Origin: Octopus sinensis
Lineage: Eukaryota
Reading direction: 5' to 3'
Assembly: GCF_006345805.1 (NCBI RefSeq)
Contig: NW_021833825.1
Coordinates: 1-55,048, forward strand
Length of the DNA: 55,048 nucleotides
A program made the position numbers and the translations under genes. Of this stretch, positions 15,858 to 54,110 are shown in pieces; positions within the stretch are counted from its first letter, which is position 1; the number at the start of each line of letters is the position of its first letter. Under the pieces are notes generated by a model. That model made no database searches. It had not been told where the DNA came from and saw nothing but the letters and a program-made list of their open reading frames with translations.

Positions 15858-16267
15858 TTTACTATTTTACTCTTTTACTTCTTTCAGTCATTTGACTGCG
15901 GCCATGCTCGAGCACCGCCTTTTAGTCGAGCAAATTGACCCCGGGATTTATTCTTTTGTAAGCCCAGTACTTATTCTATCGTTCTCTTTTGCCGAACCGC
16001 TAAGTGACGGGGACGTAAACACACCACCATCGGTTGTCAAGCAATGCTAGGGGGACAGACACAGACACACAAACACACACATACATATATATATATATAT
16101 ACGACGGGCTTCTTTCAGTTTCCGTCTACCAAATCCACTCACAAGGCTTTGGTCGGCCCGGGGCTATAGTAGAAGACACTTGCCCAAGGTGCCACGCAGT
16201 GGGACTGAACCCGGAACCATGTGGTTGGTAAACAAGCTACTTACCACACAGCCACTCCTGCGCCTAT
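15858..16267 (-). mobile_element. SINE family A inserted in the penton gene
   Basis: Full-length reverse copy of the 2418-2828 element; penton frame resumes at YSFF. Confidence 0.92.
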
Positions 16268-17443: not shown

Positions 17444-17671
17444 CACCTTTTTTTATACTACTCATGCATACATTTTCCTCCCAGCTATTTTTGTAACGGA
17501 GACTATATTGTCTGCCTAGGTGACTAGATTAAAATGTGATTTCAAGGGGAGACCACCACCACAAACCTACATTCGCTAGTCATTGTGGTAGTTGCTGTTT
17601 AAACCTAGCTTGCTTCCAATCATGGAGACTTATAATTAAATAGCGTTCCCACCGTGACATTCTCGTCATTC

Positions 17672-18076
17672 TCTTTTACTCCTTTACTTGTTTCAGGCAT
17701 TTGACAGTGGCCATGCTGGAGCACCGCCTTTAGTCGAGCAAATCGACCTCAGGACTTATTCTTTGTAAGCCTAGTACTTATTCTATCGAACTCTTTTGAC
17801 GAACCGCTAAGATACGGAGTCGCAAACACACCAGCATCGTTTGTCAAGCGATGTTGGGTGGACAAATACAGACATTCAAACATATACACACACACACGTA
17901 TACATATATACGACGAGCCTCTTTCAGTTTCCGTCTACCAAATCCACTCACAAGGCTTTGGTCAGCCTGAGGCTATAGAAGAAGACACTTTCCCAAGGTT
18001 CCACGCAATAGGACTGAACCTGGAACCATGTGGTTGGTAAGCAAGCTACTTACCACACAGCCACTCCTGCGCCTAT
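17672..18076 (-). mobile_element. SINE family A
   Basis: Reverse full-length copy. Confidence 0.9.
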
Positions 18077-21368: not shown

Positions 21369-21783
21369 GTAGGAGGCGTAGGAGTGGCTGTGTGGTAAGT
21401 AGCTTGCTTACGAATCACATGGTTCCGGGTTCAGCCCCACTGCGTGGCATCTTGGGCAAGTGTCTTCTACTATAGCTTCGGGCCGACCAAAGCCTTGTGA
21501 GTGGATTTAGTAGACGGAAACTGAAAGAAGCCCGTCGTATATATATGTATGTGTGTGTATGTGCATATGTTTGTGTGTCTGTGTTTGTCCCCCCAACATT
21601 GCTTGACAACCGATGCTGGTGTGTTTACATCCCCGTAACTTAGCGGTTCGACAAAAGAGACCCATAGAATAAGTACGAGGCTTACAAAGAATAAGTCCTG
21701 GGGTCGATTTGCTTGACTAAAAGGTGGTGCTCCAGCATGGCCACAGTCAAATGACTGAAACAAGTAAAAGAGTAAAAGAGAGA
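21369..21783 (+). mobile_element. SINE family A
   Basis: Full-length copy with gtaaaagagtaaaagag tail. Confidence 0.9.
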
Positions 21784-34629: not shown

Positions 34630-35213
34630 TGTGGAGGCACATGGCCTAGTGGTTAGAGCAGCGGGCTTGCGGTCGAGGGATCGCGGTTTCGAATCTCAGA
34701 CCGGGCGATGTGCATGTTTATGAGCGAAACACCTAAGCTCCACGCAGCTCCGGCAGAAGGTAATGACGAAACTTCTGCTGACTCTTTCGGCACAACTTTC
34801 CTTCACTCTTTCCTCCTGCATCTTACACCTCACCTGCGACGGACCGGCGTCCCGTCCAGGTGGGGAACCTATACGCCAAGGAAACCGGGAAACCGGCCCT
34901 TATGAGCCAGGCATGGCTCGAGAAGGAACAAACAACAGTGGACATGCGGTTGAGGGATCGCGGGTTCGAATCTCAGACCGGGCGATGTGCGTGTTTATGA
35001 GCGAAACACCTAAGCTCCACGCGGCTCCGGCAGAAGGTAATGACGAAACTTCTGCTGACTCTTTCGGCACAACTTTCCTTCACTCTTTCCTCCTGCATCT
35101 TACAGTTCACCTGCGACGGACTGGCGTCCCGTCCACGTGGGAAACCTATACGCCAAGGAAACCGGGAAACTGGCTCTTATGAGCCAGACATGGCTCGAGA
35201 AGGAACAAACAAA
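34630..35213 (+). mobile_element. SINE family C tandem dimer nested in a reverse SINE B
   Basis: tRNA-like head tggcctagtggttagagc...ggtttcgaatctc; single 13-bp TSD actcatttcatcg at 34617-34629 and 35214-35226 around both units. Confidence 0.9.
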
Positions 35214-39521: not shown

Positions 39522-39590
<69 letters not shown>

Positions 39591-39831
39591 GTTAAATTTA
39601 GGGTAAAAATTGATATTTATCAATTAGAACCGGTGGTCTAGCATATTAAAGACGAATCCGAAGATTAAAATATTTATATATACCAATTAGGACTGAACAC
39701 GAAAAAGTGGAGAGTCAACATGCTAGATATAGACGTCAAATCGCCATCTCCACAAAAGTCTATGTTCTCAGATCAAAACTCAAACAAAACCAAAACAATA
39801 CAAGTGAAAAATATACGAAATAAATATTTAC

Positions 39832-39896
39832 CCATGTACTAAATTCAGTTTCGGCTGTTATTTTTCACAAGGAAAGTGCAGCCATCATTAGCATGG
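39832..39896 (-). ncRNA. Type I hammerhead ribozyme, G5A core (predicted inactive)
   Basis: Minus strand: ccatg CTAATGA tggctg...cagcc GAAAC tgaattta GTA catgg. Confidence 0.72.
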
Positions 39897-39914
39897 TCCC
39901 ATGGGACCATGGGA

Positions 39915-39980
39915 CCATGCTGATGATGGCTGCACTTTTCCTTGCGGAAAATAACAGCCGAAACTGAATTTAGTACATGG
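39915..39980 (+). ncRNA. Type I hammerhead ribozyme with intact core
   Basis: ccatg CTGATGA t-ggctg...cagcc GAAAC tgaattta GTA catgg; helix I 5 bp, helix II 5 bp, quasi-palindromic helix III; predicted cut after 39975. Confidence 0.85.
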
Positions 39981-40267
39981 GTAAATATTTATTTCGTATA
40001 TTTTTCACTTGTTTATTGTTTTGGTTTTGTGTTGAGTTTGATCTGAGAACATAGACTTTTTGTGGAGAATGGCGATTTGACGTCTATATCTAGCATGTTG
40101 ACTCTCCACTTTTTCGTGTTCAGTCCTTAATTGGTATATATATATACATATATATATATATATTCGCGCGCGCAAACACACACACACAAATATCCCATCC
40201 ACATACAAAATAATTTTATAAAAAGCATCAAAAAATGAAAACTTGATTATTATTGGGAGATAACATT

Positions 40268-53520: not shown

Positions 53521-53695
53521 TTTTTTGTATGATTTACATGATTACCAATAACAGAACCGATTTTCAATCTGACTTAACTCTTTCGGGGTTGATTTCACCC
53601 TCTTTCACCACACCGGTTTAATTTCATCTCACGTACACACAGGGAACTAGCAAAGTGCTGCTGCAAAGAACATCAAACGAAATTTTTTGCATATA

Positions 53696-54110
53696 TAGGC
53701 GCAGGGGAGGCTGTGTGGTAAGTAGCTTGCTTACCAACCACATGGTTCCGGGTTCAGTCCCACTGCGTGGCACCTTGGGCACGTGTCTTCTACTATAGCC
53801 TCGGGCCGACCAAAGCCTTGTGAGTGGATTTGGTAGACGGAAACTGAAAGAAGTCCGTCGTATATATGTATATATATATGTATGTGTGTGTGTATATATG
53901 TTTTATTTGTCTGTGTTTGTCCCCCTAACATCTCTTGACAACCGATGCTGGTGTGTTTACGTCCCCGTAACTTAGCGGTTCGGCAAAAGAGACCGATAGA
54001 ATAAGTACTAGGCTTACAATGAATAAATCTTGGGGTTAATTTTCTCAACTAAAGGCGGTGCTCCAGCATGGCCACAGTCAAATGACTGAAACAAATAAAA
54101 GAGTAAAAGA
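53696..54110 (+). mobile_element. SINE family A
   Basis: Full-length copy. Confidence 0.9.

Follow-up and report, generated by a model that had tools for sequence, protein, structure and literature searches.

The locus

The window, that is, the whole stretch of DNA that was analysed, is 55,048 nucleotides (55 kb) long and constitutes a complete small unplaced contig of Octopus sinensis (NCBI RefSeq assembly GCF_006345805.1, NW_021833825.1, forward strand). The subject of this report is an asymmetric insertion at 39577-40146, composed of two copies of a 512-bp repeat unit in opposite orientation, each of them carrying a hammerhead ribozyme motif. Positions 39675-40142 of the insertion read directly as a near-perfect palindrome, and a repeat search of the window gave inverted arms that are 97% (39800-39875/39937-40012) and 100% (39689-39747/40069-40127) complementary. 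The ~470-bp palindrome with two divergent hammerheads at its centre, which had been described in a sequence-only reading of this DNA, is thereby confirmed, both motifs being legible in the arms. Its left boundary, placed at 39675 in that reading, has to be moved outward, as the left copy reaches about 39577-39591 (unit position ~332) both in a BLAST search with the 512-bp unit and in a genome search that aligned query positions 3-313.

The left copy lies on the minus strand, with 39902-39577 corresponding to unit positions 1-332 in the unit BLAST. It consists of the left arm proper (39675-39902, unit 1 to ~239), a 5′-truncated copy with ~11 private changes in the arm-versus-arm pairwise alignment, and of an outer "tail" of ~93 bp (39577-39674, unit ~240-332), which has no mirror partner on the right. 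The right arm (39909-40146, plus strand), also 5′-truncated, covers unit positions 1-238 in the genome search and the unit BLAST and ends in the internal TATATA run of the element. With outer ends at unit ~332 and ~238, the two arms measure 326 and 238 bp, respectively, and the mirror symmetry ends where the element ends. Both arms start at unit position 1 and are parted by a 6-nt filler, GGGACC (39903-39908), which is included in a perfect 14-nt palindrome at the junction, GGTCCCATGGGACC (39896-39909). The mirror relation does not extend to the flanks, which have only TA repeats in common: the sequence itself reads as a (TA)n microsatellite in the left target flank (39526-39590) and another in the right one (40135-40165), the latter followed by unrelated CG/CA repeats.

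The hammerhead motifs

Every element of a complete minimal type I hammerhead, of the type carried by Penelope-like elements (PLEs), could be located at 39915-39980 on the plus strand, where the sequence-only reading had seen a copy with a full CUGAUGA/GAAA/GUA core and three helices. Helix I pairs CCAUG (39915-39919) with CAUGG (39976-39980) over 5 bp, and the core box CUGAUGA (39920-39926) is followed by an unpaired extra base, U39927, which precedes G39928, the partner of C39959 in the G10.1-C11.1 pair. Helix II (5 + 6 bp) comprises GGCUG/CAGCC, a 3×3 internal loop, an inner UUUUCC/GGAAAA stem and a UUGC loop. The GAAA box occupies 39960-39963, helix III (ACUG-AAUU-UAGU) is a 4-bp hairpin that can also be read as a 12-nt near-palindrome, and the predicted cut falls after A39975 in GUA/C (39973-39976), that is, between 39975 and 39976. 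The helix III palindrome of the window, ACUGAAUUUAGU, includes G.U pairs, while the variants ACUAAAUUUAGU and ACUGAUCAGU are perfect palindromes. The earlier assignment to the Penelope-type minimal hammerheads with palindromic helix III agrees with the structural features published for these ribozymes.

A descriptor specifying the core boxes, the G10.1-C11.1 pair, a helix II of at least 4 bp and a helix I of at least 4 bp matched only this plus-strand site on the two strands of the 55-kb window, against one match in 200 dinucleotide-preserving shuffles and none in 200 for a stricter version; the hammerhead observation is therefore confirmed and not a product of chance. A free-energy fold of 101 nt regains helices II and III (−36.3 kcal/mol, z = −4.5), with the junction palindrome predicted to compete for two of the five helix I pairs.

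The copy on the minus strand (39832-39896, would-be cut 39837/39836) is degenerate according to its sequence, its fold and the arm alignment. Its catalytic box reads CUAAUGA, with an A at 39889 (G5A, as noted earlier), and so departs from the CUGANGA pattern that the right arm retains. Helix II has suffered two substitutions and one deletion in its inner stem, and the copy folds less well than that on the plus strand. By exact-word counts over the whole genome, the G5A version of the hammerhead 20-mer has a single match, the window's own, vs 100 for the intact version, and G5A is thus a change private to this copy.

A 512-bp repeat family

A search of the 2.7-Gb genome with the right arm returned 1318 or more first-look candidates; 50 places elsewhere were scored, many of them at 98-100% identity and all starting at 39909. 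Its most similar copies differ from it by one base only, a C that is common to both window arms and is discussed below. Other copies of the family extend upstream of 39909, their variable 5′ ends adjoining TA or CA repeats, and the full unit is 512 bp long, as seen in arrays such as that at locus L020, in which it is repeated head to tail with a 512-bp period. The unit has a GC content of 33.6%, and the longest stop-free stretch in six frames of three joined units is at most 71 codons. A 20-mer from the 3′ region (unit ~215-234) has 1894 exact matches genome-wide, vs the 100 of the hammerhead 20-mer of this subfamily, and this gradient is the 3′ bias in copy number expected of a retroelement with 5′ truncation. 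The variable 5′ truncation and partial head-to-tail tandems of PLE insertion units are both found in the family, and nearly every mapped insertion is bordered on its outside by (TA)n, as in the PLE insertion bias toward microsatellites and AT-rich DNA.

Each full unit also has an internal 26-bp palindrome, CATTTGAAATATATATTTCAAATG, at unit 416-441 (1404-1429 of L020). Two loci on different contigs, L002 (881-2236) and L008 (881-2238), have an identical composite structure, and in both the two outermost unit pieces have in common a 13-bp deletion that is missing from the inner units. The pattern looks as if both arms had been copied from one multimeric template with unlike neighbouring units.

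A second subfamily, B, was found by way of contigs from a public sequencing run and has 51 exact sites in the genome; its helix III is the perfect palindrome ACUGAUCAGU. The hammerhead alignment across the two subfamilies comprises 29 of 30 distinct sequences, L023:1286-1360 having been left out as truncated within the motif. Standard pairs occupy 95.8% of its paired cells, vs 30-43% when the partners are slid by one to three columns. In helix II, both partners change at three pairs (C-G/U-A, G-C/A-U/G-U and U-A/A-U), and the closing pair of helix III varies between G.U, G-C and A-U. The extra base after A9 is U in the rows of family A and A in most rows of subfamily B; the row of L070 is out of register in helix II and by eye reads GAUUG/CAAUC without an extra base. 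The compensatory changes in helix II between the subfamilies support, at the level of sequence comparison, the proposed ribozyme fold.

Head-to-head pairs and the one-sided tail

The mirror-image arrangement of the window turned out to be a general property of the family. Neighbours were counted within 1.5 kb around all 100 hammerhead sites, which gave 16 pairs with facing 5′ ends ("−+"), none of the "+−" kind and 12 on the same strand, ten of the latter at ~502-512 bp. Similarly, the first 100 listed of the 1894 3′ sites, all on contig C1, form 55 clusters, with a "−+" junction in 27 and a "+−" junction in none, and manual reading of subfamily B gave six "−+" pairs and no "+−" pair. Head-to-head joining is hence the commonest insertion form of the family and accounts for about half of its insertion units; the inverted, 5′-truncated copy joined head to head that marks PLE insertion units is accordingly present here.

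Two sets of loci were mapped: one of 24 loci picked by similarity to the window, of which 17 are composites, and one of 19 "−+" pairs on contig C1 taken in positional order, with the widest-spaced pairs omitted. The outer ends fall at ~239 and ~332 in 15 of the 17 composites of the first set (the exceptions being L009 and L027) and in all 18 assessable pairs of the second, the pair at L100 running beyond the fetched stretch. Overall this amounts to 33/35, and no pair has like outer ends on both sides. In 14 of the 19 C1 pairs the inner arm ends are at most 10 nt apart, and the junction position differs between pairs. The family thus has an extension of ~93 bp at one end only, and this 239/332 asymmetry corresponds to the one-sided "tail" signature of PLEs.

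A palindrome with TA on both sides might equally have brought to mind a miniature inverted-repeat transposable element (MITE) or foldback element derived from a DNA transposon, with long terminal inverted repeats and a TA target-site duplication. We consider such an origin highly unlikely, since the arms are unequal (326 vs 238 bp), copies in a single orientation with variable 5′ truncation exist alongside 512-bp tandem arrays, the junction shifts from pair to pair, and the flanks are long (TA)n tracts instead of a 2-bp duplication. The fixed terminal inverted repeats, short target duplication and uniform copies expected of a MITE or foldback element were not found.

Common origin of the two arms

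Both arms of the window carry a C where the family has a G. The 23-mer with this C has only three matches in the genome, namely the two arms and one other place, and that with the G has 173; two independent insertions would hardly both have the rare C, which indicates that the arms arose in one event. The same holds more widely. When each arm of the 21 other pairs was aligned to one real unit copy as reference, 121 differences were found to be common to both arms, with only 9 private to the arm ending at 332 and 24 private to the arm ending at 239.

An alternative history, in which a young plus-strand copy inserted beside the 5′ end of an older minus-strand copy, would agree with the ~5% divergence of the left arm next to a right arm nearly identical to its most similar copies, and PLE particles can nick AT-rich DNA inside their own repeats (Frangieh et al. 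2024, PMC11167929). We give it very little credence, however, because the arms hold in common a variant found 3 vs 173 times genome-wide, both begin exactly at unit position 1, their outer ends form the usual 332/239 pair, and the arms of the 21 other pairs have nearly all of their differences from the reference in common.

The left arm is nevertheless unusual. It differs from the right arm by 11 events in the pairwise alignment, three transitions and eight insertions or deletions (indels) of 1-2 nt; a three-way count gives 15 left-arm changes, a figure inflated by shifted indels. These changes are private, as neither the right arm nor any other scored copy has them, and the right arm has no private change of its own. 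The best match of the left arm elsewhere in the genome is at 95%, and the arms of the other 21 mirror pairs have only 0-5 private changes each. An assembly error in a palindrome arm, local slippage mutation or a low-fidelity copy at birth could each account for the excess. In the sense of the element the three arm-to-arm substitutions comprise two G>A and one C>T; the absence of any A>G cluster rules out ADAR-type hypermutation as the source of the changes. A systematic error bias to the tail-bearing arm can also be dismissed, as the 21 other pairs have 9 private differences there vs 24 on the other arm. In contigs from four public sequencing runs, which supplied just short pieces derived from the repeat and no usable editing signal, the stretches with the private variants (39762-39799 and 39857-39894) had almost no coverage, and 39781-39799 and 39876-39894 had none at all; this counts neither for nor against the variants.

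The odd, indel-rich surplus of private changes in the left arm, together with the fact that the window is an entire small unplaced contig and that assemblies are known to have difficulty with PLE structures (Craig et al. 2021, PMC8557442), raises the question of whether the palindrome itself is an assembly artefact, either a fold-back long-read chimera or a mis-join of two repeat copies. This appears very improbable. The symmetry stops at the element ends, beyond which the flanks are alike in TA only, and the 93-bp tail stands on the left arm alone; dozens of sites on chromosome-scale contigs show the identical architecture; and both arms carry a variant found only three times in the genome.

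Relation to Penelope-like elements and retrozymes

Taken together, 39577-40146 is very probably a single insertion of a high-copy, non-coding 512-bp hammerhead retroelement of the Penelope-like or non-LTR (non-long-terminal-repeat) retrozyme kind, made of two 5′-truncated copies joined head to head in (TA)n, with the mirror half likely being a fold-back copy of the first formed during integration.

Minimal hammerhead ribozymes of PLEs, which probably act as dimers, have also been noted as dual motifs ~100-700 bp apart on opposite strands (Cervera & De la Peña 2014, PMC4209133). The family hammerhead resembles them in several respects: it is of type I with the boxes CUGAUGA and GAAA, one nucleotide is left unpaired between A9 and G10.1, G10.1 itself pairs with C11.1, helix II is long, helix I has 5 bp, and helix III (15.2-16.2/loop 3) is palindromic, with dimerisation potential. 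The hammerheads of PLEs, like those of this family, are mostly truncated single motifs (PMC4209133). Unlike in the PLE ribozymes, helix III is longer here, with 4 bp and a tetraloop, a 3×3 internal loop interrupts helix II, and the carrier is a 512-bp non-coding unit instead of the terminal repeat of an element with open reading frames (ORFs); the location in the terminal repeat of an element encoding a reverse transcriptase (RT) and a GIY-YIG endonuclease, which characterises the published motifs, is not seen for this unit.

As to insertion structure, PLE copies are reported to be 5′-truncated, to form partial tandems, often to adjoin an inverted 5′-truncated copy, to have a 30-40-bp tail at one end and to be biased to microsatellites including (TA)n (Craig et al. 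2021, PMC8557442). Inverted PLE junctions bear palindromes, head-to-head joining is the most frequent form, and self-priming has been inferred from this (Arkhipova et al. 2013, PMC3846280). Purified PLE protein cleaves and extends both target strands, and the tail corresponds to the interval between the two internal sites from which it begins reverse transcription (Frangieh et al. 2024, PMC11167929). The family thus parallels the insertions of endonuclease-bearing PLEs, whose published architecture combines a pseudo-LTR with an inverted truncated copy and a tail (PMC3846280, PMC8557442, PMC11167929), in its 5′ truncation, tandems, head-to-head copies, junction palindrome, one-end extension and (TA)n targets, and differs from them in its longer tail and in having no RT or endonuclease ORF in the unit.

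Animal non-LTR retrozymes, in turn, are short AT-rich tandem units with type I hammerheads that are expressed as circular RNAs (Cervera & De la Peña 2020, PMC7229834), and a preprint derives them from PLE terminal repeats (Li, Clavereau & Pollet 2026, 10.64898/2026.07.22.740005). Like them, the octopus family is built from a short unit that is AT-rich and non-coding and holds a single type I hammerhead, it forms head-to-tail tandems, and its mobilisation by PLEs is presumed. It is unlike them in unit length (512 bp, with a tandem period of ~502-512 bp, vs the 150-450 bp quoted), in a hammerhead of the PLE-minimal and not the canonical loop-loop kind, and in the mirror pairs that make up about half of its insertion units. 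The literature searches, including a word search of the available text of an octopus repeat-annotation paper (PMC13282606), yielded no account of cephalopod elements of the hammerhead or retrozyme type.

On the model of the published PLE work, the insertion could have arisen as follows. A PLE RT/GIY-YIG endonuclease supplied in trans would nick a TA repeat, and reverse transcription would start at one of two internal TA-rich sites, the interval between them being the "tail". Synthesis would then halt early, and self-priming or a template switch at a small palindrome would give the inverted arm. The family hammerhead, for which self-cleavage is predicted from sequence and fold, may serve to process transcripts that span several tandem units, the products possibly being 512-nt circles.

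Several observations weigh against this interpretation and are gathered here. The first concern the ribozyme. No Rfam hammerhead model matched the window at the gathering score, positions 39600-40200 (601 bases) at E ≤ 10 or the full unit at E ≤ 1, so that a check proposed earlier, by Infernal models, reported neither copy. What probably lowers the score is the additional base following A9 together with a helix II that is long and interrupted, and the sub-threshold matches of microRNA and small RNA models on 39600-40200 merely reflect the hairpin. The covariation comes down to a few independent events between two subfamilies, in a structure that was derived from one of the aligned sequences, and PLE minimal hammerheads cleave poorly in vitro (PMC4209133). 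Others concern the insertion. The ~93-bp tail exceeds the published 30-40 bp, and it is bounded on both sides by TA runs like those of the target. Plain microhomology with the TA repeat could thus have primed synthesis at such ends, with no need of a PLE-specific internal initiation. The window pair is moreover an outlier, its 11 vs 0 private changes not being predicted by a history in which the arms are born identical and decay equally. With eight of the 11 events being indels and the window being a whole unplaced contig, an assembly error in the left arm is possible, and G5A shares this doubt with the other changes there. The last point is the autonomous partner, which was not identified: the unit has no sequence in common with the one PLE family compared, at six ten-kb and 20 three-kb loci.

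Autonomous PLEs themselves are present in the genome, with at least 5029 first-look candidates for GIY-YIG and with ORFs of ~780 aa that combine RVT_1 with a C-terminal GIY-YIG. Among the ORFs beside family copies, the only strong match was an unrelated RVT_1 at L009, judged to be LINE-like (long interspersed nuclear element) from its RT score. Three of the PLE loci deserve mention in their own right. L066 has another PLE-type hammerhead, in a divergent "−+" pair (~8430-8515 on the minus and 9198-9275 on the plus strand, ~700 bp apart), with a long helix II and the palindromic helix III ACAUAUGU, a few kb from a 775-aa frame with a GIY-YIG match. L064 has a candidate minimal hammerhead at 5663-5705 (plus strand), ~570 nt downstream of a 780-aa RT/GIY-YIG ORF, with helix III ACAUGU and a U3-A8 core variant (UUGAUAA ... 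GAAA) of a kind described in published PLE work. L065 (1-7391) is a PLE copy with 1.46-kb direct repeats 5.9 kb apart, and its ORFs are one of 479 aa without a Pfam match and one of 781 aa with RVT_1 and GIY-YIG.

Other features of the window

A ~400-bp repeat resembling a short interspersed nuclear element (SINE) is present in at least six copies in both orientations and at 85-92% identity (2423-2828, 15862-16267, 17670-18076, 21374-21783, 51356-51757, 53691-54110 and, in part, 46743-46958). Local tandem duplications are found at 7194-8941 (units of ~850-900 bp, 96.9% identity) and at 34659-35212 (277-bp units, 94.6%). The stop-free frame at 9627-10307 (plus strand) has an RVT_1 match (E = 1e-12) and is a fragment of another retroelement; that at 49790-50473 (minus strand) matches the PT disordered repeat PF04886 (E = 1.6e-27) and is probably translated low-complexity DNA.

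Fate of the ribozyme and significance

Long inverted repeats are generic substrates of ADAR and Dicer, and it had been proposed that this locus works as a cleave-versus-edit switch, in which a read-through RNA either self-cleaves at 39975/39976 or forms a double-stranded ADAR/Dicer substrate, the G5A twin being kept inert. One part of that proposal is borne out by the folds, namely that the read-through RNA would close into a duplex of ~230 bp that hides the ribozyme. The 468-nt RNA of the palindrome is predicted to form a single hairpin of this length at −377.3 kcal/mol (z = −49), vs −36.3 kcal/mol for the ribozyme, and a full read-through transcript is thus modelled to end in a hairpin with ten times the stability of the ribozyme fold.

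The greater stability of the duplex and the general affinity of such repeats for ADAR and Dicer are what speaks for a functional switch, which we nevertheless regard as most unlikely. By default the family inserts in this arrangement (27 of 55 clusters), and all 18 assessable pairs on contig C1 show the end asymmetry of the window. G5A occurs once vs 100 intact sites and stands beside other private damage in the left arm, helix II included, so that there is no sign of selection on it. The two ribozymes are on opposite strands and therefore never on the same transcript, and transcription in either read-through direction would produce the complement of the ribozyme first, which would leave no real choice between the two outcomes. 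There is no A>G cluster between the arms, and no gene was recognised nearby, a Pfam scan of 20 ORFs of the window having returned only the RT fragment and the PT low-complexity repeat.

Neither the descriptor nor a BLAST search with the unit gave a same-strand partner for the intact hammerhead in the 55-kb window, which deprives this copy of a means to dimerise in cis or to release an RNA of unit length. With no such partner, the other copy mutated and a spanning RNA that would be a long hairpin, the ribozyme at this locus is likely to be functionless and part of an insertion that was dead on arrival.

Any long hairpin that is transcribed could be edited. A more active picture of the family would make it a live 512-nt hammerhead "retrozyme" whose mirror pairs are transcribed as long hairpins and give the ADAR and small-RNA machinery a handle on the family, the left-arm errors then reflecting low-fidelity fold-back copying; we hold this to be improbable. 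In the Anolis PLE, hammerhead cleavage needs the protein, the hammerhead is dispensable for insertion in vitro, and the ribozyme site is not marked by any RNA-seq read ends (Frangieh et al. 2024, PMC11167929).

As a single PLE-type insertion, the striking structure in the window is explained as an ordinary transposon scar and need not be pursued as a regulatory RNA device. How PLEs build their inverted copies and tails is still an unresolved question in the field, and the clean insertion grammar of this octopus family, with its TA targets, 239/332 ends, variants common to both arms and mostly coinciding inner ends, provides raw material for addressing it.

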